DNA from: a virus
Length of the DNA: 37,554 bases
Virus record (IMG/VR): IMGVR_UViG_3300027903_000005
Direction: 5' to 3' (one strand)
This document shows positions 7,811-37,554 of the stretch, piece by piece. Position numbers and translations under genes: made by a program. Below the pieces are notes generated by a model. That model was not told the DNA's origin, did no database searches, and was given only the letters and a program-made list of their open reading frames with translations. Position 1 is the first letter of the stretch, and each line of letters starts with the position of its first letter.

Positions 7811-7835
7811 AGTTATTTCAATATGAAACCATTTT

Positions 7836-8977: not shown

Positions 8978-10222
8978 ATGCCTACAAATATCTTGCAACA
9001 GGTTATTACCTATAATGAATCTAACCTTGCGCTTTTACTTAACTCTTTCTGTTTTTTAAGTACATCGAATAAAAAGTTCGTTGGATTTAATGATTCTATT
9101 CCTAAGAACTTGGGTGACACTGTATCATTTGATTTACCACCAAGATTTACCACTACGAACTCACTGGTTGTAACATTCCAGCCTGCTGTTCAGCGTGTTC
9201 AAAACTTGACGGTAGACCAACAAGCCTCAACTGCTTACGAGTTTACTGCACAACAATTTATTTTCAATGTTCGTGACTATATGCCGAAATTCGGTAAATC
9301 AGCTACTGCTGAGCTTGGTACACAAGTTGAATCTAACGTAGCTCAATTGGCTGAGACTAATACATTCCGTTTTTACGGAGATGGTATCAACCCAATCAAC
9401 AGCTACTTGCAATTAGCAAACGCTTTGGCTTTCTTCCGTAACTTTGGTGCAGTTCCAACAGACACTAAAGGCTATCTATCAGATTTAACATTCCCATTGA
9501 TTGTTAACTCCGGTTTAAACCAGTTCACTATGAACAGGGGTAACCGCGAAGCAATGTCATGGGAAATTGGTGATTTTAGTAAGTGCGAATGGTATCAATC
9601 AAACTTGCTTAAAACTCACCTTGCAGGAACAGAAGGAAACGCAGGTTCTACATTGACAGTTGTGTCAACTACATTGGACGCTAATGGAGCCGTTATTGCT
9701 ATTACATTTAGTGGAACAAACGCTGCTAGTGATGCTAATTCAATAAAGAAATATGATAAGTTTCAGTTCAGCGATGGAGTTTCTGGAAAAGCAAATCTTA
9801 GATTCTTAACCTTTATTGGTCATAAGCAATCTCAGTCTCCTGTACAGTTTAGAGCTACAGCTGACGCTGCTTCTACTGGCGGTTCACAAGTAACGGTAAG
9901 TCTTTATCCTCCATTACAAGCAAACTCAGGACAAGACCAAAACTTAAACACTCCAATTGTAGCTGGTATGCAGGTAACTGTTCTTCCTGACCATAGATGT
10001 GGTTTGATTATGTCTGGGAATCCATTGTTCTTAGCTATGCCTAGACTACCGGAAGAGGTTCCATTCCCAACTTCTGTTGCGATGGACCCTGATTCAGGAG
10101 CTAGTATTCGTCAGTATTATGGTTCTCTGTTTGGGCAAAACCAACGTGGAATGGTTCACGATGTTATATGGGGATCTACACTAGTAGACGAATATTCGAT
10201 GATGGTAGCTTTGCCTATATAG
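8978..10222 (+). CDS. major capsid protein (P22-coat-like by position and size)
   Basis: 414 aa, preceded by GGGAGA. It directly follows the scaffold gene. A strong stem-loop lies just downstream. Confidence 0.75.
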   Translation: MPTNILQQVITYNESNLALLLNSFCFLSTSNKKFVGFNDSIPKNLGDTVSFDLPPRFTTTNSLVVTFQPAVQRVQNLTVDQQASTAYEFTAQQFIFNVRDYMPKFGKSATAELGTQVESNVAQLAETNTFRFYGDGINPINSYLQLANALAFFRNFGAVPTDTKGYLSDLTFPLIVNSGLNQFTMNRGNREAMSWEIGDFSKCEWYQSNLLKTHLAGTEGNAGSTLTVVSTTLDANGAVIAITFSGTNAASDANSIKKYDKFQFSDGVSGKANLRFLTFIGHKQSQSPVQFRATADAASTGGSQVTVSLYPPLQANSGQDQNLNTPIVAGMQVTVLPDHRCGLIMSGNPLFLAMPRLPEEVPFPTSVAMDPDSGASIRQYYGSLFGQNQRGMVHDVIWGSTLVDEYSMMVALPI

Positions 10223-10291: not shown

Positions 10292-11038
10292 ATGTCTGTA
10301 AATAGCCCAATCGTAAATGCTCGCGTTAAATACGTGAATGGATTAGAGATTGCTTATGCAACAACAACCACATTAACACTGGCTGCTGGTGCTGCAAGCA
10401 ACTCTACAAATGTAGATGATATTATTTTAAGTGCTCCCGTGACCAACACAATTACTTCTGTTGGTGTGAACGGTGTAGACATTGCAGCTGCTGTATTAAG
10501 CAGTTTTTATGCCGTGTATGTAATCGGCGACTCTACTGGCTACAGAGCGACTGCAAGTTTATTATCCTTAAGTGCAACTGCCCCTTCTTTGCCTTTTGGG
10601 TATGATATGTTTAGGCGTGTTGGTTATGTATTAACTGATGGTTCTGCTCTTTTAGTTAAGTTCTGGCAATATGGCCATGCTAGCTCAAAAGATATGTGGT
10701 ATGACACTGGCATTGCAACACCTGCAATTACAACATCTACTACCTATGTATCTCAATCATTAGCGGCTGGTATTCCTCCATCGTTAGTATGTGAAGCATA
10801 TCTGAAGGTTGATTATACAGCGAACAGTGCGACAAATACTTGTACGATGGCGCCGTACGGCTCAACAGCTTCGGTTGGTATGATTATATTTGGTTATGGT
10901 GTGGCAGCAGCTCAGCAAGGTATGGTAACAGTTCCAACTGCGCTTAATTCTACTGCTCCAAGTATTACCCATAAAGAAACATCAGCTAGTGATGCTCTTG
11001 TGATTCTAGTAGCTGGTTATCAAGATAGTTTAGCGTAA
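10292..11038 (+). CDS. virion-associated protein of unknown role (248 aa, Ala/Thr/Ser-rich)
   Basis: Strong SD (AAAGGAGA). It sits between the capsid and adaptor genes, a slot that is empty in P22. Confidence 0.65.
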   Translation: MSVNSPIVNARVKYVNGLEIAYATTTTLTLAAGAASNSTNVDDIILSAPVTNTITSVGVNGVDIAAAVLSSFYAVYVIGDSTGYRATASLLSLSATAPSLPFGYDMFRRVGYVLTDGSALLVKFWQYGHASSKDMWYDTGIATPAITTSTTYVSQSLAAGIPPSLVCEAYLKVDYTANSATNTCTMAPYGSTASVGMIIFGYGVAAAQQGMVTVPTALNSTAPSITHKETSASDALVILVAGYQDSLA

Positions 11039-11060: not shown

Positions 11061-11768
11061 ATGGCGTACACAACTAATGAGCTCATAACAGGTGCTTTTT
11101 ATGCATCCGGCGTAGTTTCACGCGAGTTTGAGACAGTTAGTGGGCAACAGATTGGGGATGGCCTTAGTTGGTTAAATGATATTCTAACTGAGAAAACAGT
11201 TGATGATGGTATGGTTCCTTATGAATCAACCTATACGTTTACTGCTGTTCCAGGACAAGAGATATATTCAATACCTGATTTGATTGCAATTGATACGTTG
11301 GTGTTCTTCAAGCAGTCCGTACGTTTTAGTATGTCATATACAAAGCGAAATGCTTATTTCGGATCTAATCGTGTTGAAAGCATTAGGAGTTTGCCATACC
11401 AATGGTATTTCGAAAGAAAGTTTGGTGGTGGAAACCTATATATATACTTTACTGCTGACCAGAATTACCCAATGGAACTTCATGGAACATTTAGATTAGC
11501 TGAAGTGGCATTAAATCAAGATTTAAGTTTGACGATTGATAAGTTTTATACGACTTATCTGAGATATGCTTTAGCCGATAGAATTTGCGCTGAATACAAT
11601 TATGTTACGCCTCCAAATGTGGTGAAGCAACTTGGAAAATATGAAGGATGGATAGACAAAAAATCTAAACTTATTGACCTTCAGTTAGAGAAGGCATCCT
11701 CTCTTCAGGGGAGTAATGCGACTTATTCTTGGGCATGGATCAATCTTGGGAAGGGGTTTCTTCCTTAA
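11061..11768 (+). CDS. head-to-tail adaptor candidate (gp4 position)
   Basis: 235 aa with SD AAAGGAGA. The call rests on position ahead of the gp10-like gene only. Confidence 0.45.
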   Translation: MAYTTNELITGAFYASGVVSREFETVSGQQIGDGLSWLNDILTEKTVDDGMVPYESTYTFTAVPGQEIYSIPDLIAIDTLVFFKQSVRFSMSYTKRNAYFGSNRVESIRSLPYQWYFERKFGGGNLYIYFTADQNYPMELHGTFRLAEVALNQDLSLTIDKFYTTYLRYALADRICAEYNYVTPPNVVKQLGKYEGWIDKKSKLIDLQLEKASSLQGSNATYSWAWINLGKGFLP

Positions 11769-11807: not shown

Positions 11808-13394
11808 ATGGGTACGGAATTATCAGAACAAATACCAATCAATGTTGCGGGTGCAAGTTCCTTTGGAGTGTGGCCCAAGATAAATCTTGAAAAGACATAT
11901 AATATGTATCTTTCAGATGAATGGATGATTGGTTTCCCTGGCTATAAGAAAGTAGCTTTGGATGGTGCCCCTGGGGAAGGTAGAGCTATATTTCGGTCTG
12001 TTCGCGGAAATTTCCTTCTTGTTGTAGTTGGATCTGCAGTTTATAGATTAAATGAAGCATTGGCTCCTACTTTTGTAGGCACATTATCTACAAGTGCCGG
12101 CGAGGTATTTATAGATGAAAATCTATCGCAGCAATTGTGCTTAGTAGATGGTCTAAGGGCATATATTTATAATTCTACAACTGGAATATTAACGCCTCAA
12201 AATCTTGTAGATGGTACTGTCCCAACGCCATTACCGGTAATTCCAAATTATGTTTCATTCCATGGTGGGTATTTTCTAATTGCATCTGCTTTGAATAGCA
12301 TCAATAATTATCAATGGTTTTCCTATATAAGAAATGATGACAACACCATTAAATGGTCATCTACTCAGACTATATCTACAAAACCTGATGCTGCGATAGC
12401 AGTAAGACGAATTCCAGGTCGAGGTAATAATGTTATAGCATTTGGACGTTCTGTTGCTGAGATACACACGTTGGTTGCACAAACTGGGGCATCTCAATAC
12501 ACAAGAGTATCTTCATATAATATTGATAATGGGTGTATCAGCGTATCAACTATCGCAGCTGGAGAAGATACGGTGGCGTGGTTAGCGGTTAACGAAGCTA
12601 ATAGCCCGGTTATTATGGTTACCAATGGCTCGGAAACAAAGCAAATTTCTACGGATGGGATAGACCATCTCATGGAAAGTATCCAGTTCCCAGAGGACTC
12701 AACGGCATTCTTTTTTAGACAGAATGGACATTTATTTTATCAGCTCACGTTTTTTAATAAGGCAGACAACTTAACTCTTATTCATGATTTTACAGTTGGT
12801 AAATTCTTCCATCTATCAGATGAGAATCTAAACTTTCATATAGCTCGTGATGTGGTTTACTTTAATGAAAAATCTTACCTCGTATCATTGAATGATGCGG
12901 CTATATATGAAATTGGAGATGAGTTTAACACTTATAGTTACAGTAGAGATCCTAACGATATTGGCCAACTTATCCCGAGAATAAGGATATGCAAGACTAT
13001 AAGAAAGAAAGATAGTTCCACATTTAGAGGTGGGATGTTCACATTTTTGATAGAGCAAGGTGTCACTAATTTTAATTTTGGTGCTGATGGCGATAATCAA
13101 ATGATAACCGAGATTACAGAGGATATAATAGTCAGCGAATCTGATATCCCTATAGTAAGTGAAGATAGTTTCTTTTCGGTTGATAATAATAGGCCACGGG
13201 TTGATATGTCTTTCTCAAAGAATGGTAACGAGTCCTTTAGTAATATAGTGGGAAGAGAGCTAAACCCACAAGCACATTTTAGGAATCAAATAAGATGGCA
13301 TAGACTTGGGCAAGCTAATGAACTTACTATTCAGTTAAGATTTTGGGGATTTAATAGATTCGTAGTAACAGAAGGGACGATTGAGACATACTGA
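11808..13394 (+). CDS. packaged-DNA stabilisation / tail hub protein (P22 gp10-like)
   Basis: 528 aa. The C-terminal end RPRVDMSFSKNGNESFSNIVGRELNPQAHFRNQIRWHRLGQANELTIQLRF resembles, from memory, the C-terminal end of P22 gp10 (...DGINYGRE...VLWKRVGRIRRLIGFKLRV...). The position is syntenic. Confidence 0.55.
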   Translation: MGTELSEQIPINVAGASSFGVWPKINLEKTYNMYLSDEWMIGFPGYKKVALDGAPGEGRAIFRSVRGNFLLVVVGSAVYRLNEALAPTFVGTLSTSAGEVFIDENLSQQLCLVDGLRAYIYNSTTGILTPQNLVDGTVPTPLPVIPNYVSFHGGYFLIASALNSINNYQWFSYIRNDDNTIKWSSTQTISTKPDAAIAVRRIPGRGNNVIAFGRSVAEIHTLVAQTGASQYTRVSSYNIDNGCISVSTIAAGEDTVAWLAVNEANSPVIMVTNGSETKQISTDGIDHLMESIQFPEDSTAFFFRQNGHLFYQLTFFNKADNLTLIHDFTVGKFFHLSDENLNFHIARDVVYFNEKSYLVSLNDAAIYEIGDEFNTYSYSRDPNDIGQLIPRIRICKTIRKKDSSTFRGGMFTFLIEQGVTNFNFGADGDNQMITEITEDIIVSESDIPIVSEDSFFSVDNNRPRVDMSFSKNGNESFSNIVGRELNPQAHFRNQIRWHRLGQANELTIQLRFWGFNRFVVTEGTIETY

Positions 13395-17271: not shown

Positions 17272-19467
17272 ATGTCACTAGACCCACGATACATAACAGA
17301 TGGACCTTTAGAGGAGGGATTTCTTAGTAAGGATTCTGGCTTACCTCTTGCTGGTGGAACCGTGACCTTCTATAGGGATTCATCACGAATAACACTAAAG
17401 ACAGTTTACGAACTTACTGGAGCGCCTCCCAATTATTCTTACGTTCCTCTTCCTAATCCTATAACTTTAAGCTCAATTGGGGTCATCCAGAATGCGGGAG
17501 GAGACAATGTTGTCATATATTATTATCCTTGGCTTGCTGACGGCATCACTCCTGATCTCTACTATGTGGTTGTAAAAGATTCCAATGGAGTAGATCAATT
17601 TACACGCGAAGCATGGCCCAACTCTGCCGCAGGGGAATCTCCAGGAGCAGACACAAGCTTGCCGGTTCAAAACCAGATAAGCAATCCGCAGTTTACGCAG
17701 ATTCTTATAAATGATGTTCCAACGTTAACGCCTTCAACTACCACTTTTTCGGTATCGGCCGAAACAAAGGAATTTGAATTAGCGCCCGACTGGACATTTA
17801 TTATAAGCGGAACAGGGGATGTTACAGTTGAGAGATTGGCATTAGAAGGTCAATTAGCAGCACCAACTAACCCCCCTTATGCTTTAAGCGTATCCACGGG
17901 TTTAAATATAAATAAATGTTATTTAAGACAACGGTTTTATACTAACTCTGGGTTATGGACTAGCACCACCAGCGAACCGCTCTTTTTATCTGCATCTTTA
18001 GTTTTAAAGAATCTTATCAACGCTGCTACGACAATAGATATGTTCTACCAAGCCTCTAATGGTAGCGGGGCAACACCTTTAAATATATTGAGTAAACCTG
18101 TTTCTGCATTATCTGATTACACATCATATACAGGACCAGGTGTCGAGATACCAATTTCTACCGATGCTCTATCAGGAGACGCAGGCTATGTAGATATCTA
18201 TATATCATTTGGGCAAGCATCATCGGTTGCAGTTACGAGCATTCAAATCGTGCCTGTGGTAAACGTTACCTCAGTTCCGGTTATTTCTTATGACATTGCG
18301 AGCTCCAATAGAGCAGAAGCATTGATGGGGGACTACTATTTACCTAGGGTGACATCTTCGACAATACCAAGCCTTCTTACTGCCTGGGATTTTAAACTTA
18401 ACCCTGCGCAATTTGGGGCCGCTGGAGTAGCTGCAGGGCCTGTATCAACAACACCTCAATATATATGGGATCAAACTATATGCGCCACCTCATCAGGGAC
18501 AGCAGTAGTAAGTCGAAATGCAGTAACTGGGGGATTAGTTCTGGCTCCTGATACGGCTAATCAATCATTGTATATGATTCAATACCTAGGGTCTCCGCAG
18601 GCTAAGGAAGTGCTCTTTAGTCGACTAAGCTCAAATATATCAGCATATCTTGCAGCGGGCGGAAGCTCCGTAGTCGCAAGCGTGTATTTATATGTAGCTC
18701 CTGCAGCTACCGTAATACCTATATTGCCTTCATCTTTGGTAACCGTGGCAAGTAATGGCTCCTTGTCTGGCCTTGCGGCTGGATGGTCCATAATCCCAAG
18801 AAGTGGGTTAGATACTCCAAGGGCTGTCTTGTCTGCATCTTTTCCGACGGTAGATGAGGATATTAAGTTTACAGGATGGGAAGTCGTAGAAAGTGCCCAA
18901 TATAATGATTCTAATAAGTTTGCCATTGTTGTTGTGTTCTCATGGACCACAGCTCCGACAATTAATATTGATTCAATATCTTTAAACAAAGGCGATTTGC
19001 CAACACGACCGGCTCCTCAGACGGCATCGGATGTTCTTTCAGAATGCCAGTATTATTATGAGAATAGCTATAACTCTGGAGTTTATCCTGGGGCGGCATC
19101 AACACCAGGTTCATTGGTTACTCAGCAAGCAGTTATTTATAATGCTCCAAACTCCTTTACATGGACCAGGACATTTGGGCTACAGTTTAAAACTAAAAAA
19201 CGAACAAATTCAACTGTTAATATTTATTCTGTAAATGGAGCTATAAATACTGTTCAATTAAATACGTACGACGCTGGCGTTCAAATAGGAACACAACAGG
19301 GGACAATAACATTAGGATGGACGCAATTCTATAATGGAAATTCTGGGGTAGATTTTCAATCTATTTCTACAGTGGCTTTTGCAACGGCAGGAGCTGGCAC
19401 AAGTGAAACCAGAGAAGTCGTTATACAATATCATTATGTCGCTGACAGTAGGTTAGGAGTTGTGTAG
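17272..19467 (+). CDS. tail fibre / tail spike protein (731 aa)
   Basis: A large Ser/Thr/Ala/Gly-rich ORF directly after the ejection-protein block, with SD AAAGGGA. Confidence 0.6.
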   Translation: MSLDPRYITDGPLEEGFLSKDSGLPLAGGTVTFYRDSSRITLKTVYELTGAPPNYSYVPLPNPITLSSIGVIQNAGGDNVVIYYYPWLADGITPDLYYVVVKDSNGVDQFTREAWPNSAAGESPGADTSLPVQNQISNPQFTQILINDVPTLTPSTTTFSVSAETKEFELAPDWTFIISGTGDVTVERLALEGQLAAPTNPPYALSVSTGLNINKCYLRQRFYTNSGLWTSTTSEPLFLSASLVLKNLINAATTIDMFYQASNGSGATPLNILSKPVSALSDYTSYTGPGVEIPISTDALSGDAGYVDIYISFGQASSVAVTSIQIVPVVNVTSVPVISYDIASSNRAEALMGDYYLPRVTSSTIPSLLTAWDFKLNPAQFGAAGVAAGPVSTTPQYIWDQTICATSSGTAVVSRNAVTGGLVLAPDTANQSLYMIQYLGSPQAKEVLFSRLSSNISAYLAAGGSSVVASVYLYVAPAATVIPILPSSLVTVASNGSLSGLAAGWSIIPRSGLDTPRAVLSASFPTVDEDIKFTGWEVVESAQYNDSNKFAIVVVFSWTTAPTINIDSISLNKGDLPTRPAPQTASDVLSECQYYYENSYNSGVYPGAASTPGSLVTQQAVIYNAPNSFTWTRTFGLQFKTKKRTNSTVNIYSVNGAINTVQLNTYDAGVQIGTQQGTITLGWTQFYNGNSGVDFQSISTVAFATAGAGTSETREVVIQYHYVADSRLGVV

Positions 19468-19513: not shown

Positions 19514-20026
19514 ATGGCTAAATTTAGAGATACGAAAACTAAAAAATACATTTTTTGGAGGATGTCAGTTTTAGTAAGAGATAAGAGTGAATGCCAACAT
19601 TGCGGCTCTAAAGATAACTTGCAGGCACATCATATTGTCGAATGGGATGACGATATATCATTAAGATATGATGTTAGTAATGGATTAACGGTATGCGCTT
19701 CTTGCCATTTTAAAATACACCATACCGGTAGAGCGCCATGGAATACCGGGAAAAAAATGACTGACGCTCAAAGAAAAAAGTTGAGCGAGGCGCATATGGG
19801 GCAAATTCCTTGGAATAAAGGAATCCCGCAAACTGATGAGGTTAAAAAGAAATTAAGCCTGAAAAATAAAGGTAGAAAACTTGGGTCTATGTCGGAAGAG
19901 CGGAAACGTAAAATAGGCGAAGCCAATAAAGAAACATTAAGAAAAAATTCTGAATTTAGGAAAGGAAAAACCTGGATTAAATGCGCAGAAACTGGGAAAA
20001 GATTATGGATAGAAAAGGGATTATAG
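19514..20026 (+). CDS. free-standing HNH homing endonuclease with NUMOD3 repeats
   Basis: HNH core: CQHCGSKDNLQAHHIVEWDDDISLRYDVSNGLTVCASCHFKIHH. Three NUMOD3-like repeats follow: PWNTGKKMTDAQRKKLSEAHMG, PWNKGIPQTDEVKKKLSLKNKG and RKLGSMSEERKRKIGEANK. Confidence 0.9.
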   Translation: MAKFRDTKTKKYIFWRMSVLVRDKSECQHCGSKDNLQAHHIVEWDDDISLRYDVSNGLTVCASCHFKIHHTGRAPWNTGKKMTDAQRKKLSEAHMGQIPWNKGIPQTDEVKKKLSLKNKGRKLGSMSEERKRKIGEANKETLRKNSEFRKGKTWIKCAETGKRLWIEKGL

Positions 20027-20058: not shown

Positions 20059-20415
20059 ATGGCAACACCATACATAGCACAACAAACAGTAACAGATTTT
20101 GGCCTTCGGTTTGCCGATTTAAAATATAGCGCCAAACTTGCAATTACGACTGATACATCTCTGACAATACCAGGGAATGCACCACGCTATAAAGCGGTCA
20201 TAAAATGCGTCACCGCAGGGGAAGTGTGGGTAGCAGCTAATGCAACTGCTGCTGCAACTGCAGGAACAACTTTTGCTGCATCTACATCCGAGATGATTAC
20301 TGGGAATTACCCAATTTGCAGGGAAGTGAAAGCGGGAGATGTGCTTCATTTCTTCAGTACAACAGCAACCACAGATGTAAGTGTTATACTATATGCATTA
20401 GGGACAAATAATTAA
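20059..20415 (+). CDS. hypothetical protein (118 aa), likely virion-associated
   Basis: SD AAAGGGA. The composition is Ala/Thr-rich and beta-like. It sits at the head of the fibre array. Confidence 0.6.
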   Translation: MATPYIAQQTVTDFGLRFADLKYSAKLAITTDTSLTIPGNAPRYKAVIKCVTAGEVWVAANATAAATAGTTFAASTSEMITGNYPICREVKAGDVLHFFSTTATTDVSVILYALGTNN

Positions 20416-20430: not shown

Positions 20431-20871
20431 ATGGCTAATATTAAATTCAGTCAGTTTACTCCTGGTGGAAACGTTCAATCAGGCGATATAGTTGTTGGGC
20501 TTAGGTCAGGTGATAACGCGCAATTTACCCTAGCTGGTGGTGGAGGCCTTTTTTGGTCTGTCATTCCTGGTTCTTCCCAAACTGCAATAGTCAATACGGG
20601 ACTTATACCTCAAAGCGGAGGCCTGACTACCATTACACTACCATCTACGGCTCCTATTGGCTCTGTAATCTCAATACAAGGAGAAGGCTCAGGAGGATGG
20701 GTAGTAGATGCACCCGGAACTCAGATAATAAGGATAGGAGCTTCTGCAAGTTCAGCAGGAGGATCTATAGCTTCAAGCAATAGATATGATGCTATAACCT
20801 TGATATGTATCGTAGCAGACACCGAATGGGCCATGTACGGTCCCGTTTCCTCAGGATTTGTAATTACTTAA
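20431..20871 (+). CDS. tail-fibre paralog A: short N-terminus plus a diverged X-type C-terminal domain
   Basis: SD GGAGG. WSVIPGSSQTAIVNTGLIPQSGGLTTITLPSTAPIGSVISIQGEGSGGWVV...ITLICIVADTEW aligns with the C-termini of 20884..21870 and 25350..26534. Confidence 0.7.
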   Translation: MANIKFSQFTPGGNVQSGDIVVGLRSGDNAQFTLAGGGGLFWSVIPGSSQTAIVNTGLIPQSGGLTTITLPSTAPIGSVISIQGEGSGGWVVDAPGTQIIRIGASASSAGGSIASSNRYDAITLICIVADTEWAMYGPVSSGFVIT

Positions 20872-20883
20872 AAGGATTTTAAG

Positions 20884-21870
20884 ATGACAACTAATAACAG
20901 TTTAAATAATGCCACCGTTCCATTAACTCCAGGTTTTGGAGGAACAGGCGTAGCAAACACGGGAACAATAACTGTAGGTGGGAATACTGCTTTTTCAGGT
21001 GCTCATACTTTTACAGGAACAATTACTGGTGATACAGCTGTAACATTTCCCACTTCTGGTACTTTGGCTACAACAGCTGGCGCTTCAGGAATAGTTAATA
21101 GTGGAACTGGAAATCAAATTACATATTACGCAACAACCGGAACTACTGTTTCTGGTTTAACTGGGGCTAATGGTTCGGTGTTGGTAACAAGTAATACTGG
21201 TGTGCCTTCTATGTTAGCCAATCCTTCAGCTGATGGTCGACATTTAACGTCTGCTAATGCTGCAATTCCTTTGTGGTCAACATCAAGTTACGCCGATACG
21301 TACGGGGTTTCTACTATTTTATATGCCAGCTCTGCTAATACCGTCACAGGTTTGGCAACGACAAACAGAGCTTCATTGTCAACTAATGCAACGGGTGTGC
21401 CAACATGGCTTGCTTTAACAGATGGTCAGGTTGTCATAGGAAGTAGTGCTGGAGCTCCCGCTGCAGCTTCTTTATCTGCTGGAACAGGGATTAGTATTAC
21501 ACCGGGATCAAATAGCATATCAATTGCGGCAACTGGAGCAGCAGGGATATCATGGGCTAATATTTCTGGGACTACACAGGCTGCAGCTGTTAATACGGGA
21601 TATGTGGTTGGCAATGCATCTCAGACAACTATTACACTACCGGCCACAGCAGCGCTAGGATCTGTAATAACAGTTCAAGGTAAAGGCGCAGCTGGATGGA
21701 TTTTGGCAGCAAATACAGGACAAACTATTCAAGTTGGACAGACTGCTTCAAGTACAGCAGGTTCAGTTACATCTGCAGCAGCTTTTGATTCGATTCAAGT
21801 TGTCTGTATTACGGCCAATACTAGTTGGGCCACGATTAGCGTTTTAAGTAGTGGTGTAACCGTAGCATAA
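20884..21870 (+). CDS. tail-fibre paralog B: NT-rich N-terminal motif, Gly/Thr repeats, X-type C-terminal domain
   Basis: N-terminus: MTTNNSLNNATVPLTPGFGGTG. C-terminus: SWANISGTTQAAAVNTGYVVGNASQTTITLPATAALGSVITVQGKGAAGWIL...IQVVCITANTSW. Confidence 0.75.
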   Translation: MTTNNSLNNATVPLTPGFGGTGVANTGTITVGGNTAFSGAHTFTGTITGDTAVTFPTSGTLATTAGASGIVNSGTGNQITYYATTGTTVSGLTGANGSVLVTSNTGVPSMLANPSADGRHLTSANAAIPLWSTSSYADTYGVSTILYASSANTVTGLATTNRASLSTNATGVPTWLALTDGQVVIGSSAGAPAAASLSAGTGISITPGSNSISIAATGAAGISWANISGTTQAAAVNTGYVVGNASQTTITLPATAALGSVITVQGKGAAGWILAANTGQTIQVGQTASSTAGSVTSAAAFDSIQVVCITANTSWATISVLSSGVTVA

Positions 21871-21880
21871 AGGAATAAAT

Positions 21881-22549
21881 ATGGCCATAACAACTCAATT
21901 AAATACAGGAACTACCCCTTTAACGGTTGCTGAGGGTGGAAGTGGTGTATCAACACATACAACCGCGTACGCTCCATTAGCAGCCGGAACAACGGCTACG
22001 GGAGCTACACAAGTATGTTCTACAGGGCTTTCTACTTCAGGATTTGTGCTGACATCAACTGGAGCAAGTAGTCTCCCATCTTTCCAAGCTCCAACAGGAC
22101 CTACAGGAAGCCCAATATTAGTAAGCGTTCCTTTAACGTTGGCTCAATTTTTAGCTCTAAAGAATACACCAATACAAATTATAGCAGCGCAAGGAGCCCA
22201 TACTCTTGTTGTGCCAATCAGCATAGTTGTTGAACTTGTGATGGCTGGAGTTGCATTTTCTAATTTAGGAATAACAGGACTTCAATATGGAAGCACAACT
22301 AATTTTGCTGGACAGCGTATAGCAGAAATTCCAGCCGCAAATATTCAAACTGTCACAGTAGATACAATATTAAATGTGCCAATTCAATACAGTGCCAGCA
22401 CATTATATCCTACAATGGTAGTTTATACGGGTTCAACGTCTATAAATGCAGCTGTATATATGAGTAGCACATCAACTACGCCACTTGGTGGGACTGGAGC
22501 AACAGTCAATGTAAATGTAGTATATTCAGTTATTACAACAAGCGCATAA
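21881..22549 (+). CDS. tail-fibre paralog C: N-terminal motif, Y module, Z-type C-terminal domain
   Basis: N-terminus: MAITTQLNTGTTPLTVAEGGSGV. Y module: TTAYAPLAAGTTATGATQVCSTGLSTSGFVLTSTGASSLPSFQA. Z domain: PIQIIAAQGAHTLVV...LQYGST...VVYSVITTSA. Confidence 0.75.
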   Translation: MAITTQLNTGTTPLTVAEGGSGVSTHTTAYAPLAAGTTATGATQVCSTGLSTSGFVLTSTGASSLPSFQAPTGPTGSPILVSVPLTLAQFLALKNTPIQIIAAQGAHTLVVPISIVVELVMAGVAFSNLGITGLQYGSTTNFAGQRIAEIPAANIQTVTVDTILNVPIQYSASTLYPTMVVYTGSTSINAAVYMSSTSTTPLGGTGATVNVNVVYSVITTSA

Positions 22550-22571
22550 AACATATAAAAGGATTTAATAA

Positions 22572-23927
22572 ATGCCCGTTTTAAATTATCAAGTTAACGC
22601 ACCAGGTTATGGCGGAATAAATCCTAAATTAGTTTATATTTTTACTAATGATCCAATTGCAGTTGTTACAACAACAAATTATATAGATTGGTTAGCTAAC
22701 CCTAATGGAATATATGCTGGAGATGTTGCATTAATTGTTACCCAAGAAACGCCAACATCAAATCTTGGGGTTGGTTTTTATGAATTTGAAAGAGTTGGAA
22801 CGACAAATCATTGGAATTTAATTCCTATAACTAATAGTCCAGTTTCTGTTAATTCAGTAACAGGGACTATTAATGAAATAATTGCCACTCCTACTATGGG
22901 TGATGTTATTGTATCCATTTATCCTAATCCTCAAATTCCAGGAATTGCATCTATAGGTCTTCCTCATGGAACTACAGCACAACGAGCTGGAATTATAGGA
23001 AGTATTAGATTTAATACTGACACAGGCCTTTTTGAGGGAACACCAGATGGAACAACGTGGATTGCATTTGCTTCTGGAAGTTCAGGTGTCAATAGTATAA
23101 CAGGAACCACAAACCAGATTGTTGTTTCATCTCCAACTGGAAATGTTAATATATCAATTGATCCTGATCCAATCTTGCCTGGAAATGCAGCGGTTACTAT
23201 CCCATCTGGAACAACTGGTCAAAGGGGCAATATTGCTGGGTCTCTTCGTCTTAATACGACAACTGGTTTTATAGAACTGACAAATGATGGTACAAATTGG
23301 TACACCATTCTTAATACTAATAATGGTGTTTCAAGTATAGCCGGAACAGCCAACAGAATCACAGTAACAGGAACAACAAATGCAGTAGTTGATATAGCAG
23401 CAACATACATTGGTCAAACAAGTATTACTACATTAGGAACGGTAACTACAGGGACTTGGCATGGAAGCACAGTAACAGTTCCATTTGGTGGTACGGGAGA
23501 TGCTAGTTTTTCTGCCTTTGCTCCAGTTTGTGGAGGGGTAACAACAACTTCTGCATTACAATCTGCCACTACAGGAATTGCTACTGCTGGATTTGTTTTA
23601 ACATCTAATGGAAGTGCAGCTCTTCCTAGTTTTCAGGCAGCTCCAGGAGCCGGAAGAAGTGCAGTATTTCTAGCTGCTGTTACAGGAGATGGAACTACAT
23701 TATTTTCGTCTTTTAATGTTTCCAGTATTATAGATGTAGGAACTGGAAATTTAACAGTTAATCTTACATCAGGAACCGCAACATTTCCATTTATAAGTAT
23801 TATTGGTATAGCAAATGGATATTTTGGAACAATAGGAACAAATTCTGGATCATCTGTTAATTTTCATTGTTCTCAAGGTGCCAGTAATTTTAATGACGCT
23901 GGAATTTACTATGTTGGAGCATTTTAA
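22572..23927 (+). CDS. tail-fibre paralog D: W-type N-terminal domain, about 76-aa tandem repeats, Y module, unique C-terminal domain
   Basis: W domain: MPVLNYQVNAPGYGGINPKLVYIF. The repeats start VNSVTGTINEII... and VNSITGTTNQIV..., each with a P.GTT.QRG.I.GS.R.NT.TG motif. Y module: FAPVCGGVTTTSALQSATTGIATAGFVLTSNGSAALPSFQA. Confidence 0.75.
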   Translation: MPVLNYQVNAPGYGGINPKLVYIFTNDPIAVVTTTNYIDWLANPNGIYAGDVALIVTQETPTSNLGVGFYEFERVGTTNHWNLIPITNSPVSVNSVTGTINEIIATPTMGDVIVSIYPNPQIPGIASIGLPHGTTAQRAGIIGSIRFNTDTGLFEGTPDGTTWIAFASGSSGVNSITGTTNQIVVSSPTGNVNISIDPDPILPGNAAVTIPSGTTGQRGNIAGSLRLNTTTGFIELTNDGTNWYTILNTNNGVSSIAGTANRITVTGTTNAVVDIAATYIGQTSITTLGTVTTGTWHGSTVTVPFGGTGDASFSAFAPVCGGVTTTSALQSATTGIATAGFVLTSNGSAALPSFQAAPGAGRSAVFLAAVTGDGTTLFSSFNVSSIIDVGTGNLTVNLTSGTATFPFISIIGIANGYFGTIGTNSGSSVNFHCSQGASNFNDAGIYYVGAF

Positions 23928-23930
23928 TGT

Positions 23931-24146
23931 ATGAAATATTTAATTAAAAATAAAGATGGTTCTGTTCATATAATGACTACTATTTCAGATGAGACAAGAT
24001 GTGAAGATGAGATATTAAAATTATCTCCTAAAGATCGAGATAATGTACATTCTCACAGAGTTATAGAAGAACATGAAATACCAGAAGACAGATCTAAAAG
24101 GCATCTTTGGTGTCATTTAGATGACAAAATAATTATTAAAGATTAA
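23931..24146 (+). CDS. hypothetical protein (71 aa) in an AT-rich islet
   Basis: An ORF 3 nt after the fibre D stop. Its composition is much more AT-rich than the flanks. Confidence 0.5.
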   Translation: MKYLIKNKDGSVHIMTTISDETRCEDEILKLSPKDRDNVHSHRVIEEHEIPEDRSKRHLWCHLDDKIIIKD

Positions 24147-24169
24147 TAGATATATTATAAAAATATAAT

Positions 24170-24418
24170 ATGAAATTGACAAAAATATTCATGGCTCCAA
24201 TAAGCATTGTTGTAACAGGGACTATAATATGTTTATGGGCATCAATAATAGTATATTCAAAAATATTTAATAAAGATGAAACTTTGATTGAAAAGAAAAT
24301 GGAAGAAATTGTAGAGAAAAATATAGAGAACGTTCTGAGTCTTCCTTCAGGTTCTTTACAAGGGAAATTAGATTTTATGGTTCAACCTATAGAGCCTGAA
24401 GAAAATAAAAATAATTAA
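24170..24418 (+). CDS. small membrane protein (82 aa, one N-terminal TM segment)
   Basis: Hydrophobic span: FMAPISIVVTGTIICLWASIIVY. The C-terminal half is acidic. There is no clear SD. Confidence 0.5.
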   Translation: MKLTKIFMAPISIVVTGTIICLWASIIVYSKIFNKDETLIEKKMEEIVEKNIENVLSLPSGSLQGKLDFMVQPIEPEENKNN

Positions 24419-24433
24419 TATAAGGAGATTCAA

Positions 24434-25339
24434 ATGACAATTATAAGTTTTACAGTGAACGAACCAGGTCAAGCCGGTGTTTTTCCAAGCATGATGAGAA
24501 TCCAAACCAATAACACATTAGCTCAAGTTTTAGTAACTGGATTTTTAGATGAAATGTTTGCAGAAAATGTTCCATTACAAAATGGAATGATGGCTCTTGT
24601 TTCTACTAAACCATCTCAAAATTCTTCAGTGGTAAATACCAGCTGGCTTGAGGTTAAGTTTGCCTCTGGTCATTGGACTTTAACTCCTACAGCCGTTGCT
24701 CCAGGATCAATTACACTTCCAACTATTACAAATCATATGGCTGTTTTTACAGATACAGTTGGAACACTTGCAGATGATACAAGCGTGGCGATTAATGGTG
24801 GAAATATTCAAGCTGGACTTTCAGGTACAGCTGGTTATTTAGCTTCATTCCCTGCAACTTCAGCAAAAGGCTCATTGAGATTGACTGCTGTTGCAAATAC
24901 TGGAGATACCTTAGTTACATTATCTAATGTTGCACATGGTCAGGCTACTGTTTATAGCATTCCTGATGCTGGAAATGCGTTAGGTCGTGTATTAGTTGGC
25001 GCTACTGCAACACCGTTTACTACAGGACATATTTTAGCGTCCTCAGGGACTGGTGGCCTTGTTGTTGATTCTGCAATACCTACAACTTCAGTTCAGTTAA
25101 AGACTAATATCAAAGCAGTAACAACAGCTAATATTGGCGGAGCTGGCGCTGGACCTTTAACAGTTACTCAGGCAGCCTGTACATCTAGTAGTGTTATTAT
25201 TTGCCAAGTACAGTCTTCAAGTAACCCTTGTTATGTAATTACCGTTGTTCCAGGAACAGGAAGTTTTACAGTAACTACGAATACGGATCCGGGTGCTTCA
25301 TTGATATTAAGTTATGTTTTATTTGTAGCAGCTCAATAG
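24434..25339 (+). CDS. tail-fibre paralog E: W-type N-terminal domain plus a unique C-terminal part
   Basis: SD AAGGAG. MTIISFTVNEPGQAGVFPSMMRIQTNNTLAQVLVTGFLD...GHWTLTP is parallel to the N-termini of 22572 and 25350. Confidence 0.75.
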   Translation: MTIISFTVNEPGQAGVFPSMMRIQTNNTLAQVLVTGFLDEMFAENVPLQNGMMALVSTKPSQNSSVVNTSWLEVKFASGHWTLTPTAVAPGSITLPTITNHMAVFTDTVGTLADDTSVAINGGNIQAGLSGTAGYLASFPATSAKGSLRLTAVANTGDTLVTLSNVAHGQATVYSIPDAGNALGRVLVGATATPFTTGHILASSGTGGLVVDSAIPTTSVQLKTNIKAVTTANIGGAGAGPLTVTQAACTSSSVIICQVQSSSNPCYVITVVPGTGSFTVTTNTDPGASLILSYVLFVAAQ

Positions 25340-25349
25340 GGAGATTAAG

Positions 25350-26534
25350 ATGCCAATTATAAGTTCTAATTTCAACCAGATTGGAAATTCAGGACAACAA
25401 CCTGGAACATGCTTCATTGAAACTGATGATAGTTTGACAACTATTCAAACAACAGGATATTTAAATACATTAGAACGTCAAGGATTGCCATTAAGTGAAA
25501 ACCTAATGGCATTGGTTGGCATTAATAAAGGTGCTGCAAAATCTACTGTTTGGATGGCAATTCATTTTTCAAATGGAGAATGGAGCTTGGTGCCTAGCGC
25601 TATAGAGCCATCATTAAATGCAAAATATCTTATTCAACAACCCAATGCTACATTGCCAAATGCACAAGCGATGTCTGCATTGGCTACAGGTATTGTAAAA
25701 AACACTACAACAACTGGTGTACAGTCTATAGCGATAGCCAATGTTGATTATCAGCCTGCATTAAGCGGTGAATCCTTAACGGCGGTCACAGTAGCTACTG
25801 ATGACAAAATATTAATTCAAGATACAAGCGATTCTAATAATTTAAAGACAGTTACAACTCAAAGTGTTGCTAATCTATTTGCTGGTGTTACAAGTGTTTC
25901 TGGAACCACAAATAGAATAACCTCCACTGGGGGAACAACTCCTGTTATAGATATTTCAGCAAGTTATGTAGGACAAAGTAGCATAACTACTGTTGGAACC
26001 GTTTCTAGCGGAACTTGGAACGGTACTACTGTAGATGTTTCTCACGGCGGCACAGGTGTAGCTACTATGACTACAGCTTACGCTCCGATTTGTGCGGGAA
26101 CAACAGCAACGGGAGCATTGCAGGTTGCATCTACAGGACAAAGCACATCTGGCTTTGTTCTTACTTCCACCGGAGCAAGCAGTTTGCCCACCTGGCAGGC
26201 AGCAGGCGGTGGGGGCATGTCGTGGGCAAATATATCTGGAACTACTCAATCAGCAGCTGTTAATACAGGATATGTTATCGGTAACGCGAGCCAAACGACA
26301 GTTACACTTCCTACTACTGCAGCATTAGGTTCTGTTGTGGCAATTCAGGGTCAAGGGGCAGCAGGTTGGGTTTTGGCACCAGGCGCCGGACAGACAATAA
26401 AAGTAGGCGGTTCTTCAGCAAGCACCTCAATAACTTCTGCTGCACAATATGACACTATACAAGTAGTTTGTATTGTTGCTAATACAACCTGGTCTACCTC
26501 TTATGTTCTTAGTGCTGGCGTAACAATAGTATAG
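25350..26534 (+). CDS. tail-fibre paralog F: W domain, shaft, Y module, X-type C-terminal domain
   Basis: W domain: MPIISSNFNQIGNSGQQPGTCFIETDDSLTTIQTTGYLN...GEWSLVP. Y module: TTAYAPICAGTTATGALQVASTGQSTSGFVLTSTGASSLPTWQA. X domain: SWANISGTTQSAAVNTGYVIGNASQTTVTLPTTAALGSVVAIQGQGAAGWVL. Confidence 0.75.
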   Translation: MPIISSNFNQIGNSGQQPGTCFIETDDSLTTIQTTGYLNTLERQGLPLSENLMALVGINKGAAKSTVWMAIHFSNGEWSLVPSAIEPSLNAKYLIQQPNATLPNAQAMSALATGIVKNTTTTGVQSIAIANVDYQPALSGESLTAVTVATDDKILIQDTSDSNNLKTVTTQSVANLFAGVTSVSGTTNRITSTGGTTPVIDISASYVGQSSITTVGTVSSGTWNGTTVDVSHGGTGVATMTTAYAPICAGTTATGALQVASTGQSTSGFVLTSTGASSLPTWQAAGGGGMSWANISGTTQSAAVNTGYVIGNASQTTVTLPTTAALGSVVAIQGQGAAGWVLAPGAGQTIKVGGSSASTSITSAAQYDTIQVVCIVANTTWSTSYVLSAGVTIV

Positions 26535-26542
26535 AGGGAAAT

Positions 26543-26998
26543 ATGACTGTTAACACACAATTAGATACGGCAAGAGTTCCATTTCCTATATTTAAAAATG
26601 TAGTTGATATATCTTCTGCAAGTATATTAACAATGTATACGACGCCCGTATTAATTATACCGGCGCAAGGTGCTCACAAGGTGATTTCAATACATGATGT
26701 TTTCTTTGAATATCATTTCAATAGTATTCAATATGCAAACGGAAGTGGTATGCAATTGCAATATGGAAATACTGGATCGGGAGGAGGAACAGAAGTTGTA
26801 GTTAGTGCTAATATCAATGTTAACTCAGCTAGTAGCAATATTGGAACTGTCCCTGCAACTCCTTATACTTTAGTTGGGGTTACATCGGACATGGTAAATC
26901 AAGGTATATACGCAACTACTACTATTAATAATTATACATCTGGAAACGGAACAATTAGAGTTAGTATTTTCTATACTGTTGTAACAACTACTGCTTAA
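26543..26998 (+). CDS. stand-alone Z-domain protein G (151 aa)
   Basis: MTVNTQLDTARVP...TPVLIIPAQGAHKVISIHDVFFEY...LQYGNTGSG...VSIFYTVVTTTA. Confidence 0.7.
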   Translation: MTVNTQLDTARVPFPIFKNVVDISSASILTMYTTPVLIIPAQGAHKVISIHDVFFEYHFNSIQYANGSGMQLQYGNTGSGGGTEVVVSANINVNSASSNIGTVPATPYTLVGVTSDMVNQGIYATTTINNYTSGNGTIRVSIFYTVVTTTA

Positions 26999-27010
26999 AA
27001 AGGGATAAAA

Positions 27011-27466
27011 ATGGCAACGAATACACAATTAAATACAGCCTCTGTACCTATTCCTGTTTTTACAGCTACAATTAGTTTGTCTTCTGCAAATATTCAGGCT
27101 ATGTATGTTACTCCAGTTCTTTTATTAGCAGCTCAGGGAGCTCATACATGTATACTTATTAGGGATGTTTTCAATGAATATATATTTAATAGTTCCGGTT
27201 ATTCAAATGGAGATGCTCCTCAAATACAATATGGAAATGTTGGATCAGATGCTAGCCTGTCCTCATTTGTTTTTTATTTAAACAATATAGTTACTGGATC
27301 TTCAAGTAGTTTTTATTCTATTTCAGGAGAACCAACCGGAAATATTCCTACGACACTTTCTGTTAATGCTGGAATATACATATCAAATCAAAGTGCTTCA
27401 TATACAGGTGGAAACTCAACGTTAAAAGTAACAATAAATTATTCAGTAATAACAACAACTGCTTGA
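27011..27466 (+). CDS. stand-alone Z-domain protein H (151 aa)
   Basis: MATNTQLNTASVP...TPVLLLAAQGAHTCILIRDVFNEY...IQYGNVGSD...VTINYSVITTTA. Confidence 0.7.
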   Translation: MATNTQLNTASVPIPVFTATISLSSANIQAMYVTPVLLLAAQGAHTCILIRDVFNEYIFNSSGYSNGDAPQIQYGNVGSDASLSSFVFYLNNIVTGSSSSFYSISGEPTGNIPTTLSVNAGIYISNQSASYTGGNSTLKVTINYSVITTTA

Positions 27467-27484
27467 TATGGAAGATTAAGGAAC

Positions 27485-27931
27485 ATGACAGTAAATACAC
27501 AAATAAATAGCACTGTTGAATATTTAAAGTCAACGGTTACACTTTCTTCAGCAAACATTAAAGGTATGTATGCTGCTCCTGTTATTTTAATACCAGCTCA
27601 AGGTGCTCATACTATAATAATGATTCATGATGTGCTATTGGAATTAGTTTTTAGCACGCTTGCGTATACAGGTAGCGATGGGAATGGATCTGTTATTATG
27701 CAATATGGAAACACAGTCCATGGAGCTGGCCCATCTGCACTTATTATTAATAGCATTGTTACTGGAGCAGTAAATTCAGTTGGAACGTCAGCAAACGTAA
27801 ACATTTCTGATTCTCCTACTAATTATATTAATGCTGCTATATATGCATCTAATACTACATCAGCTTACGCAACCGGAAGCGGAACTATAAATTGCACAAT
27901 ATTTTATTCAATTATAAATACGATCACATAA
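27485..27931 (+). CDS. stand-alone Z-domain protein I (148 aa)
   Basis: MTVNTQINS...APVILIPAQGAHTIIMIHDVLLEL...MQYGNTVHG...CTIFYSIINTIT. Confidence 0.7.
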   Translation: MTVNTQINSTVEYLKSTVTLSSANIKGMYAAPVILIPAQGAHTIIMIHDVLLELVFSTLAYTGSDGNGSVIMQYGNTVHGAGPSALIINSIVTGAVNSVGTSANVNISDSPTNYINAAIYASNTTSAYATGSGTINCTIFYSIINTIT

Positions 27932-27943: not shown

Positions 27944-28126
27944 ATGAATAAACAATCTGGATCGATAGGGTTATGTTTTGTGTTTCTTCTAGCTTGCGTT
28001 GCAGTCTATGCCGTAGGGTATTATGGATGTAATTGCATGGAGGATTTTGATGATTCAGATTTACAAAATGTGGAATCTATACAACTTACAGACATTTATA
28101 ATGATCCATTAGAAAAAGTTAAATAA
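27944..28126 (+). CDS. small membrane or lipoprotein-like protein (60 aa)
   Basis: Hydrophobic N-terminus IGLCFVFLLACVAVYAVGYYG with a possible lipobox (LLAC). The C-terminus is acidic. It is the last gene of the + strand unit. Confidence 0.5.
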   Translation: MNKQSGSIGLCFVFLLACVAVYAVGYYGCNCMEDFDDSDLQNVESIQLTDIYNDPLEKVK

Positions 28127-28164: not shown

Positions 28165-28192
28165 GGTGATTATAGTAATAATCACCCTTTTG
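28165..28192 (+). terminator. candidate intrinsic terminator of the late + strand operon
   Basis: GGTGATTAT (28165-28173), loop AGTA, ATAATCACC (28178-28186), then CTTTTG. Confidence 0.45.
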
Positions 28193-28286: not shown

Positions 28287-28303
28287 GGTGACAAATTGTC
28301 ACC
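28287..28303. repeat. perfect 7-3-7 palindrome GGTGACA-AAT-TGTCACC in the non-coding gap
   Basis: Read directly from the sequence. Confidence 0.8.
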
Positions 28304-37078: not shown

Positions 37079-37554
37079 TAAGCCTGCGCGCCCATATCCA
37101 CCTAAATTAAAAGAATATAATGACAAGAAAACGGCGGCGTTTAAAGAAATAATGAAGCCTAAAGTTGAGAAAACCATTATGGGAAGACCAACAATATATA
37201 CAGAAGAGCTTGCGGATTATATTATTAGACAGGTGGCCTCTAGTGATATGGGTCTAAAAGCTTTGTGTGCCTCGGACGATAGGATGCCAAATCATCAGAC
37301 GGTTAATGCATGGAGGTGGGATTATCCTGAGTTTTCAGCCCGTTACCTTACAGCAAAACAACATCAAACATACATTATGGGAGAGGTTTGCGAGGAAATT
37401 GCCGCTGATAAGGCATATTATCACGATGCTACAGGTGAGAAGCGTGTTGACCCCGGTTACATTGCATCACAACGCTTAATGGCTGAAACTAAACGCTGGC
37501 ATATGAGTAAACTTAACCCTACATTCTTTGGAGATAGAAAGGTTGTAGAGCAAC
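37008..37554 (+). CDS. terS: small-terminase-like HTH protein; runs off the window and continues at 1..182
   Basis: MGRPTIYTEELADYIIRQVASSDMGLKALCASDDRMPNHQTVNAWRWDYPEFSARYLTAKQHQ...KRWHMSKLNPTFFGD matches a family I know annotated as terminase small subunit (GRPskYtpE....i...).  The ATG at 37008 has the best SD (GGAG). The ATGs at 37152 and 37179 are alternatives. Confidence 0.65.
   Translation, partial: MPKNPKKDEQEKPKKPLRSKKSTDKPARPYPPKLKEYNDKKTAAFKEIMKPKVEKTIMGRPTIYTEELADYIIRQVASSDMGLKALCASDDRMPNHQTVNAWRWDYPEFSARYLTAKQHQTYIMGEVCEEIAADKAYYHDATGEKRVDPGYIASQRLMAETKRWHMSKLNPTFFGDRKVVEQ
37456..37554. repeat. 99-bp terminal direct repeat, copy 2
   Basis: Identical to bases 1-99. Confidence 0.95.

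Follow-up and report, generated by a model that had tools for sequence, protein, structure and literature searches.

The window analysed here is a 37,554-nt stretch of viral DNA (IMG/VR record IMGVR_UViG_3300027903_000005) that represents a complete phage genome, with an exact 99-bp terminal direct repeat at 1-99 and 37456-37554 and a circularly assembled length of about 37,455 bp. Between 20431 and 27931 it carries an array of nine fibre genes, which are referred to below by their start positions. Our preferred reading, held with moderate confidence, is that this array encodes jointed, multi-tip receptor-binding fibres, in which a C-terminal domain (X) of one protein pairs with a short N-terminal peptide (the plug) of the protein encoded next. 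Comparison of the sequences with those of related arrays supports end-to-end, possibly branching, plug-and-socket joints rather than nine independent fibres; branching and multi-receptor binding are plausible but unproven.

In the proposed assembly, the receptor-binding apparatus of a podovirus with a P22-like portal would be built from separately encoded segments that are joined non-covalently. Two types of N-terminal anchor would fix the fibres to the virion, K once (20431) and W three times (22572, 24434 and 25350). X, which is about 110 aa long and presumably trimeric, would form a socket at the end of a segment, and the plug, some 10-20 residues at the N-terminus of the next-encoded protein, would dock on it. 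One fibre would run from 20431 (K-X, a minimal adaptor) through 20884 (plug-M-X) to 21881 (plug-Y-Z0), and a second would consist of 25350 (W...Y-X) carrying the tips 26543, 27011 and 27485 (plug-Z1, plug-Z2 and plug-Z3). Two further fibres, 22572 (W...Y-V) and 24434 (W-U), would be single-chain and have their own tips. The tips Z0 to Z3, U and V would contact the host surface, with Y as a conserved neck before the tip, and recombination where modules meet, the X-plus-plug junction among these sites, would reshuffle anchors, shafts and tips between phages.

Linkage of X and plug in related arrays

About 190 related loci were fetched with four queries, i.e., the coat protein, a conserved 731-aa protein encoded upstream of the array, the X domain and protein A, which heads the fibre block; in the following, L-numbers are labels of related loci and P-numbers are labels of metagenomic proteins. 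About 50 related arrays were compared, 45 of them anchored on the upstream 731-aa gene and four further ones derived from genomes. The locus order in these arrays is protein A (about 118 aa), then usually one K fibre and W fibres. The K anchor (MADIKFSQF…GD.VVGLR, about 33 aa) is found on the first fibre gene after protein A in 34 of the 45 arrays, and fibres with the W anchor (starting MPIIS…), usually one to three, are found in 38. The protein encoded by 25350 has more than 950 metagenome homologues, most of which come from 36-40 kb contigs.

Where a gene ends in X, the very next gene usually has a plug N-terminus (MATNNxLN or MxxTTQLNT), as seen in three pairs in the window (20431 and 20884, 20884 and 21881, 25350 and 26543). 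The strict plug motif was present in 47 of 114 genes located after an X-terminated gene and in 31 of 899 other genes (Fisher p=6.5e-29). Among 122 plug-like N-termini, 72 belong to genes directly behind an X gene and 26 to genes that continue a tandem run of plug genes; of the remaining 21, about half are false positives of the pattern. At the level of the 45 arrays, 20 have both X and plug, 21 have neither, two have X only and two have plug only (Fisher p=1.6e-8), and the four discordant arrays were attributed to truncation of the block, to misses of the pattern or to a false positive. The four further genome-derived arrays obey the same rule. Taken with the comparison of fused and split fibres described below, this co-occurrence suggests that X and plug form a pair.

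A different explanation for these data is that the array encodes nine independent fibres, with K, W and plug as three anchor types, X as a distal glycan-binding tip, and the adjacency of X and plug as a result of gene order and recombination hot spots. The position of X is compatible with a tip as well as with a socket, as it was C-terminal in 96 of 96 local matches and in approximately 146 of the best 150 of the 5273 clusters that make up the X family (E≤1e-3 among 1.84 billion representatives). However, X, with a mean column identity of 58% and 17 nearly invariant positions, shows far stronger conservation than the tips, and the tips encoded behind it vary (Z, Gly_rich_2 and others). Among the 23 arrays without an X-terminated gene, only two have a plug-like start, one of them on a 61-aa false positive, which also argues against nine independent fibres. 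In addition, X is found directly after an anchor only in the 146-aa protein 20431, which as an independent protein would be a fibre without a shaft. While the known glycan-binding function of the fold predicted for X, the absence of co-variation between X and plug and the occurrence of X genes without a downstream plug gene (see below) favour nine independent fibres, we regard this explanation as rather unlikely. On our preferred reading, X would not serve three fibres as a common receptor-binding tip; it is a conserved domain, XD1/gp9-like and C-terminal in nearly all cases.

Fused and split fibres

In arrays without X, the K fibre is a single protein of 356-1064 aa, while in arrays with X it is divided among two or three shorter proteins that add up to a similar length. 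For example, the 1064-aa K fibre of L028 is colinear with residues 1-325 of the X-terminated, 476-aa K protein of L027 (K476X) followed by residues 25-280 of the downstream 419-aa protein (p419), with 75-90% identity, and the fused fibre of L028 has neither the X domain nor the first 24 residues of the downstream L027 protein. Similarly, residues 1-300 of 25350 align with the fused 610-aa W protein of L038 (W610Z), and Z1 to Z3 align with its C-terminus, the alignment starting at residue 17-23 of each Z. Fused relatives lack exactly X and plug, with the flanking shaft still colinear. Such alignments would be expected if X plus plug took the place of a peptide bond, and they speak against nine independent fibres. 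The two kinds of array, split and unsplit, are interspersed among close relatives (L027 and L028; the window or L038 and L034), indicating repeated events rather than a single ancestral event.

Module homology and exchange

The initial annotation had described the array as a fifth of the genome, which is accurate (7.5 of 37.5 kb, 20%), and as built from four shuffled modules, W, X, Y and Z. All-against-all BLASTP comparison within the set of nine proteins placed these modules, and the pre-Y segment, on a solid statistical footing (E about 1e-8 to 1e-40). The X domains of 20884 and 25350 are 70% identical over 112 aa (E=2e-40), and that of 20431 matches those of 20884 (E=6e-29) and 25350 (E=9e-25). 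The Y module of 21881 (residues 12-73) is 73% identical to that of 25350 (226-287; E=5e-22) and also matches that of 22572 (301-368; E=4e-12). The combined pre-Y and Y segments of 22572 (233-363) and 25350 (155-291) are 53% identical (E=9e-36). For W, 24434 matches 25350 with E=4.5e-15, and 22572 matches 24434 and 25350 with E=5e-9 and E=9e-4, respectively. Full-length identities among the three stand-alone Z ORFs (open reading frames) are 38-46% (E 1e-28 to 1e-35), and the C-terminus of 21881 matches them with E=5e-10 to 2e-8. Modules beyond the initial four include the N-terminal peptide common to 20884, 21881, 26543, 27011 and 27485, the N-terminal anchor of 20431, the tandem repeats of 22572 and the distal parts of 20884, 22572 and 24434.

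The modules had also been read as old mosaic paralogs rather than fresh duplications, and this holds, since the copies are only 66-81% identical in DNA; long near-identical repeats are absent and each paralog has its own orthologue in related genomes. The nucleotide comparison given in support of that reading (48 of 60 matches between 21541-21600 and 26217-26276) could not be reproduced; the two segments match at 14 of 60 positions as written, and at 47 of 60 when the second is shifted by -6 nt (26211-26270). Aligned over the X region (21544-21906 and 26214-26568), the DNA is 68.6% identical over 363 nt. A fresh-duplication origin of the modules was ruled out by the 66-81% DNA identity and the best direct repeat (71% over 210 nt). 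Programmed variation was rejected as well; the genes lie on one strand, inverted repeats are short and weak, the best direct repeat is the one just mentioned, and no invertase or reverse transcriptase was found among the ORFs scanned, ruling out invertible segments (a shufflon) or a diversity-generating retroelement.

The expectation that related genomes would reveal cassette exchange was borne out, as the same modules recur in other combinations. L038 carries the 610-aa W…Y-M-Z protein in place of the W…Y-X protein and three free Z genes of the window, L034 encodes K…Z as a single 431-aa protein (K431Z), and L026 has W-X followed by the Z trio. In homologues, C1q or Gly_rich_2 domains are found after the Y module, and in relatives, Gly_rich_2 tips either belong to plug proteins or form part of a fused K fibre. 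The earlier interpretation of a combinatorial fibre array thus stands as far as the modules, their age, their exchange and the podovirus assignment are concerned, but needs correction in that X, W, Y and Z differ in role.

Array layout and individual genes

The nine fibre ORFs are all located on the plus strand (starts at 20431, 20884, 21881, 22572, 24434, 25350, 26543, 27011 and 27485). All nine have an AGGA/GGAG-type ribosome-binding site, with intergenic gaps of 9-22 nt. With three sockets, five plug genes and three W genes, the array is the most elaborate of the 45 compared, which could indicate a redundant array in which only one or two proteins are assembled, the others being kept as spare recombination cassettes. 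Such redundancy appears improbable, as all nine ORFs are intact and tightly spaced in one operon and each paralog has conserved orthologues in several genomes, suggesting purifying selection.

The assignment of the nine proteins as fibres is indirect. Neither they nor protein A have a Pfam match, the one PHROG match is a weak hit of 22572, and the W, X, Y and Z modules are without a current Pfam or PHROG family; the distal modules of relatives are Gly_rich_2, C1q and PHROG tail-fibre domains. Protein A (118 aa; 20059-20415, plus strand) lies (nearly) directly 5' of the first fibre gene, and its orthologues, 28-98% identical, occupy the same position in related arrays. It is a candidate tail-side partner of the fibres.

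The putative first fibre begins with the K-X adaptor (146 aa; 20431-20871), which comprises the K anchor (aa 1-33, 20431-20529, MANIKFSQF..GDIVVGLR) and an X socket (aa 34-146, 20530-20868). Directly after this X-terminated gene lies the plug-M-X middle segment (328 aa; 20884-21870), with a plug at aa 1 to approximately 22 (20884-20949, MTTNNSLNNATVPL..GGTG), an M shaft (aa 26-215) and a second X socket (aa 216-328, 21529-21867). The plug-Y-Z0 distal segment (222 aa; 21881-22549) consists of the plug MAITTQLNTGT, the Y neck (aa 12-78, 21914-22114) and a Z tip (aa 81-222, 22121-22546).

The W-R-preY-Y-V fibre (451 aa; 22572-23927) has a W anchor (aa 1-95, 22572-22856), R (aa 96-233), pre-Y (aa 234-300), Y (aa 301-366, 23472-23669) and a V tip (aa 367-451). 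It contains two tandem 80-aa repeats (aa 96-255, 22857-23336), which are identical at 37 of 80 positions and share the motif PxGTTxQR…GSxRxNT; a third, partial unit runs into the pre-Y segment. V is the source of the weak PHROG tail-fibre match (phrog_11355, E=0.005), and a relative that BLASTP does not link to V matches this family as well, over roughly the same part of the profile (E=4.5e-7). The W-U fibre (301 aa; 24434-25339) comprises a W anchor (aa 1-95, 24434-24718) and the distal part U (aa 96-301).

The W-L-preY-Y-X fibre base (394 aa; 25350-26534) comprises W (aa 1-92, 25350-25625), pre-Y (aa 156-225), Y (aa 226-283) and the third X socket (aa 284-394, 26199-26531). It is followed by the plug-Z tips Z1 (151 aa; 26543-26998), Z2 (151 aa; 27011-27466) and Z3 (148 aa; 27485-27931), each with a plug of about 17-22 aa and then the Z jelly-roll.

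Between 22572 and 24434 the array is interrupted by two small non-fibre ORFs on the plus strand, one of 71 aa (23931-24146) and one of 82 aa with an N-terminal membrane helix (24170-24418). The operon is closed by a gene for a 60-aa membrane protein (27944-28126, plus strand), 3' of which are terminator-like hairpins at 28165-28186 and 28287-28303. Both small membrane proteins have homologues at equivalent positions in L034 and L038, where those of the 82-aa protein are encoded between W fibre genes; an ORF similar to the 82-aa one is found at this place in L033. Lysis or exclusion would be conceivable roles for the two membrane proteins.

Predicted folds of X and W

In the AlphaFold model of 25350 (all models were of single chains), W (residues 3-82) is alpha/beta with a predicted local distance difference test score (pLDDT) of about 85-90, and X (residues 284-394) is all-beta with a pLDDT of about 95. 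Foldseek matched this model to the N-terminal part of the CBA120 tailspike TSP4 (E=5e-7, about 115 columns, root-mean-square deviation 3.5-4 Å, 18-22% identity), with further matches to baseplate-cup chains of Klebsiella phage KP1 and to T4 gp9 (E=7e-3). The aligned range of the model was unreported, and the match was assigned to X because the X profile, searched against PDB sequences, picked residues 76-125 of TSP4, i.e., the start of XD1 (residues 80-178), as its best, albeit weak, match (E=0.3). X and this TSP4 segment share the motif GGGGxxW…GYxIxN…TVxLP…GDxV. X is therefore predicted from the models to be an XD1/T4-gp9-like mixed beta-sandwich of about 100 residues; it matches the start of XD1 and T4 gp9, not XD2 or XD3, and has no Pfam match. 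XD1, whose fold is a nine-stranded mixed beta-sandwich, occurs in baseplate connector and branching proteins, and its closest relative is the T4 gp9 domain (PMC8825819). The glycan-binding modules of CpaA and StcE share the XD1 fold, and PDB entry 6o38 represents the CpaA protease with its glycan-binding repeats (PMC8825819). In P0229, P0252 and P0192, X-type stretches occur in tandem arrays of three or four in place of the single C-terminal copy, an arrangement that recalls the tandem glycan-binding modules of CpaA.

Several observations weigh against plug-and-socket joints formed by X. In TSP4 and T4 gp10, partners are bound by XD2 and XD3, while XD1 has been interpreted as a spacer that is unable to bind a trimeric partner on its axis because of linkers on both of its faces (PMC8825819). 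By analogy with CpaA and StcE, X itself could bind sugar. No co-variation between X subtype and plug sequence was found beyond genome relatedness (Spearman 0.06), and about a quarter of the X-terminated genes have no downstream plug gene recognisable with the regular expressions used. In a tblastn search with 25350 and the X consensus, X was found in one of 50,697 deposited phage records, that of Microcoleus phage My-WqHQDG (L130; OR578706.1, 137761-139203), where it forms the C-terminus of a 480-aa hypothetical protein; this gene is followed by genes on the opposite strand, with no adjacent plug gene. Finally, plug-like N-termini (M-x-x-T/N-N) are also found on non-fibre proteins, for example the coat, adaptor-like and 248-aa proteins, and A-rich 5' codon bias may contribute to the plug motif. 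The plug-like starts of the 248-aa and adaptor-like proteins may reflect chance, the same codon bias or wider use of the peptide. With regard to the spacer role of XD1, it can be argued by analogy that a C-terminal X would leave one face free, unlike the internal XD1.

The model of 25350 also raises the possibility that the W proteins 22572, 24434 and 25350 are capsid fibres (head spikes) and that the K chain alone is on the tail, an arrangement compatible with plug-and-socket joints. LME-1 has a trimeric head decoration protein whose distal part is unmodelled, and gp52 of Pa223 is a capsid-anchored trimeric fibre that has been proposed as an adsorption aid. Foldseek matched the model to an LME-1 capsid chain (9eg4_H, 87 columns, target TM score 0.61, E=0.09) and to the Pa223 capsid spike (E=2e-5). 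Most arrays, furthermore, combine a K fibre with at least one W fibre, which suggests two attachment sites. The aligned part of the model is unreported, however, so W is perhaps not the part that matches, the protein identity of chain H in LME-1 is likewise unreported, and the Pa223 alignment has a root-mean-square deviation of 32 Å. The W profile matches nothing among PDB sequences, where searches with the K-anchor profile, 24434 and 22572 likewise gave chance matches only, and the W genes are located in the fibre operon, far from the coat gene. On balance, a capsid location of the W fibres is possible but somewhat unlikely. A BFVD search gave only uncharacterised proteins of uncultured phages.

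The Z tips

The Z domain of 21881 (residues 80-220) was modelled by AlphaFold as a jelly-roll beta-sandwich with a pLDDT of about 90. Foldseek gave only generic matches to jelly-roll and carbohydrate-binding-module (CBM)-like folds (E≥0.01), such as phage cement proteins, plant-virus coats and Stig cyclases. A capsid role for Z was set aside because the domain occurs in fusion with fibre shafts.

At 148-151 aa, the stand-alone Z proteins are small, and their genes lie immediately 3' of a fibre gene, as Tfa genes do; one might propose that they are tail-fibre assembly chaperones (Tfa or gp38-like) instead of structural tips. We consider this very improbable, given that Z is a covalent C-terminal domain in 21881, in K431Z of L034 and in W610Z of L038. 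Moreover, no Tfa or gp38 family match was found in Pfam or PHROGs, the jelly-roll/CBM-like fold is typical of binding tips, and the plug is common to the Z proteins and bona fide fibre segments.

Z1, Z2 and Z3 represent three orthologous groups that occur in the same order in four genomes, with identities of 51-79% between orthologues and 31-48% between paralogues, and the trio follows X on different fibre bases, either W-anchored or K-chain. One could extend the preferred reading of jointed fibres by proposing that X-plug is a universal portable joint at which this large group of uncultivated phages can cut any fibre and re-plug tips, and that Z1, Z2 and Z3 form a heterotrimeric jelly-roll knob on a homotrimeric X socket. 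The logic of such a heterotrimer would resemble that of C1q heads; we know of no phage receptor-binding protein that forms a heterotrimeric knob of this kind, and the extended proposal is a doubtful one. Z1 to Z3 may instead represent alternative tips, each of them homotrimeric.

Tandem triplets of plug-bearing tips from families unrelated to Z were observed after, or associated with, an X-terminated gene in L060, L079, L095, L112 and L197, and doublets in L051, L061, L065, L084, L091, L105 and L106. A general rule of three tips per run was rejected, as runs of one, two and three all occur, with pairs and singles as common or commoner; these run-length counts are blurred by the imperfect plug pattern.

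Comparison with known receptor-binding systems

In phages K1-5/SP6, KP32/KP34 and G7C, a conserved N-terminal peptide of 7-11 residues docks the second receptor-binding protein (RBP) (PMC6872550). These anchor-branch systems, i.e., SP6/K1-5 (gp37 adaptor), G7C (gp66/gp63.1), KP32/KP34 (RBP1/RBP2) and CBA120 (TSP4/TSP2 with TSP1/TSP3), resemble the proposed assembly in having an anchored first protein with a docking domain related to the T4 baseplate, separately encoded further RBPs with a short conserved N-terminal peptide, and horizontal exchange of tips (PMC6872550, PMC8825819). They differ in that their docking domains are XD2/XD3 jelly-rolls located just after the anchor, which make side branches. 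The candidate socket in the window, by contrast, is XD1-like, located at the extreme C-terminus, can recur in series and replaces a covalent shaft link, and the resulting geometry is therefore probably end-to-end. A plug peptide on secondary proteins is found in the window (five genes), but X does not match domains 2/3 of gp10 (XD2/XD3), and as a C-terminal domain it is not placed right behind an anchor and ahead of a receptor-binding body. Apart from the weak XD1 signal, no sequence family is common to the array and these systems. The array is thus set apart from the known anchor-branch systems by the type of domain, the terminal location of this domain and its repeated use in series.

T4 gp9 (the long-tail-fibre connector), XD1 of T4 gp10 and XD1 of CBA120 TSP4 share with X the same predicted mixed beta-sandwich of about 100 residues and belong to trimeric connector proteins. 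In those proteins the domain is internal and is considered a spacer, whereas X in the window is terminal and is the sole conserved element before a separately encoded continuation. The T4 long tail fibre (gp34-gp35-gp36-gp37) is also a serial fibre made of several gene products encoded in order. It has no homology to the array, and its joints are pair-specific, whereas the joint type proposed here is reused within the genome and across thousands of metagenomic proteins. BppL of TP901-1 and ORF18 of p2, receptor-binding proteins of lactococcal phages, are, like the Z proteins, small stand-alone tips (about 150-170 aa) in which a docking segment at the N-terminus is combined with a beta-sandwich head. 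These two belong to siphovirus baseplates, and no sequence match or significant fold match to Z was found.

Phage type, relatives and hosts

The genome is that of a podovirus, as the initial annotation had proposed. The structural genes include those for the large terminase (3154-4746), a P22-like portal (4721-6880; phrog_156, E=7e-71), the scaffold (8183-8920) and the major head (coat) protein (8978-10222). The coat gene is followed by genes encoding a 248-aa protein (10292-11038; N-terminus MSVNSPIVNARV), an SU10-type adaptor-like protein (11061-11768; PF24175 SU10_adaptor, 30.2 bits with a cut-off of 27; N-terminus MAYTTNELI) and a P22 gp10-like hub (11808-13394; phrog_578, E=1e-40; PF11134, 23.7 bits, just below the cut-off of 25). 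Between the hub and 17272 are several proteins without an assigned family, followed by the conserved 731-aa gene (17272-19467). No tail-tube, sheath, tape-measure or other long-tail genes were found among the ORFs scanned. A RecT/RecE pair is encoded on the minus strand. ARAGORN identified a tRNA-like gene with an undetermined anticodon (7835-7907) between the portal and scaffold genes. An HNH endonuclease gene (19514-20026) is located between the 731-aa gene and the gene for protein A. It looks like a mobile homing-endonuclease insertion, given that it is missing at this position in most relatives; a partial copy was observed in L024.

The phage, an uncultivated soil podovirus with a genome of about 37.5 kb, has no cultured relative. 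It is only very distantly related to known phages, with the portal 21-25% identical to P22-like portals (tblastn), and megablast of the array against the 50,697 phage records gave no nucleotide matches. Relatives were binned with six unrelated phyla (Andersenbacteria, Saccharibacteria, Mucilaginibacter, Planctomycetales, Bacteroidales and Desulfosporosinus labels; L046, L195, L197 and L199 among them). On the basis of such binning, Bacteroidota (Mucilaginibacter, for example) or Acidobacteriota are candidate hosts of the window phage. L196 is the only relative inside a long bacterial contig (1.87 Mb; a metagenome-assembled genome of Ca. Acidoferrales, Acidobacteriota), and this position suggests that it is an integrated prophage in Acidobacteriota.

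Significance

If the X-plug joint is real, it would represent a compact natural RBP connector, consisting of a socket of about 110 aa and a peptide of about 10-20 aa, with the socket found in 5273 protein clusters of uncultivated phages. It could then serve as a candidate plug-and-play engineering part beyond the T4 gp10-like systems of Klebsiella phages, and would provide a rule for annotating "hypothetical" fibre arrays in terms of anchor, socket, plug, neck and tip. For the phages themselves, such a joint would explain how small podoviruses carry many specificities and why their fibre genes are frequently split.

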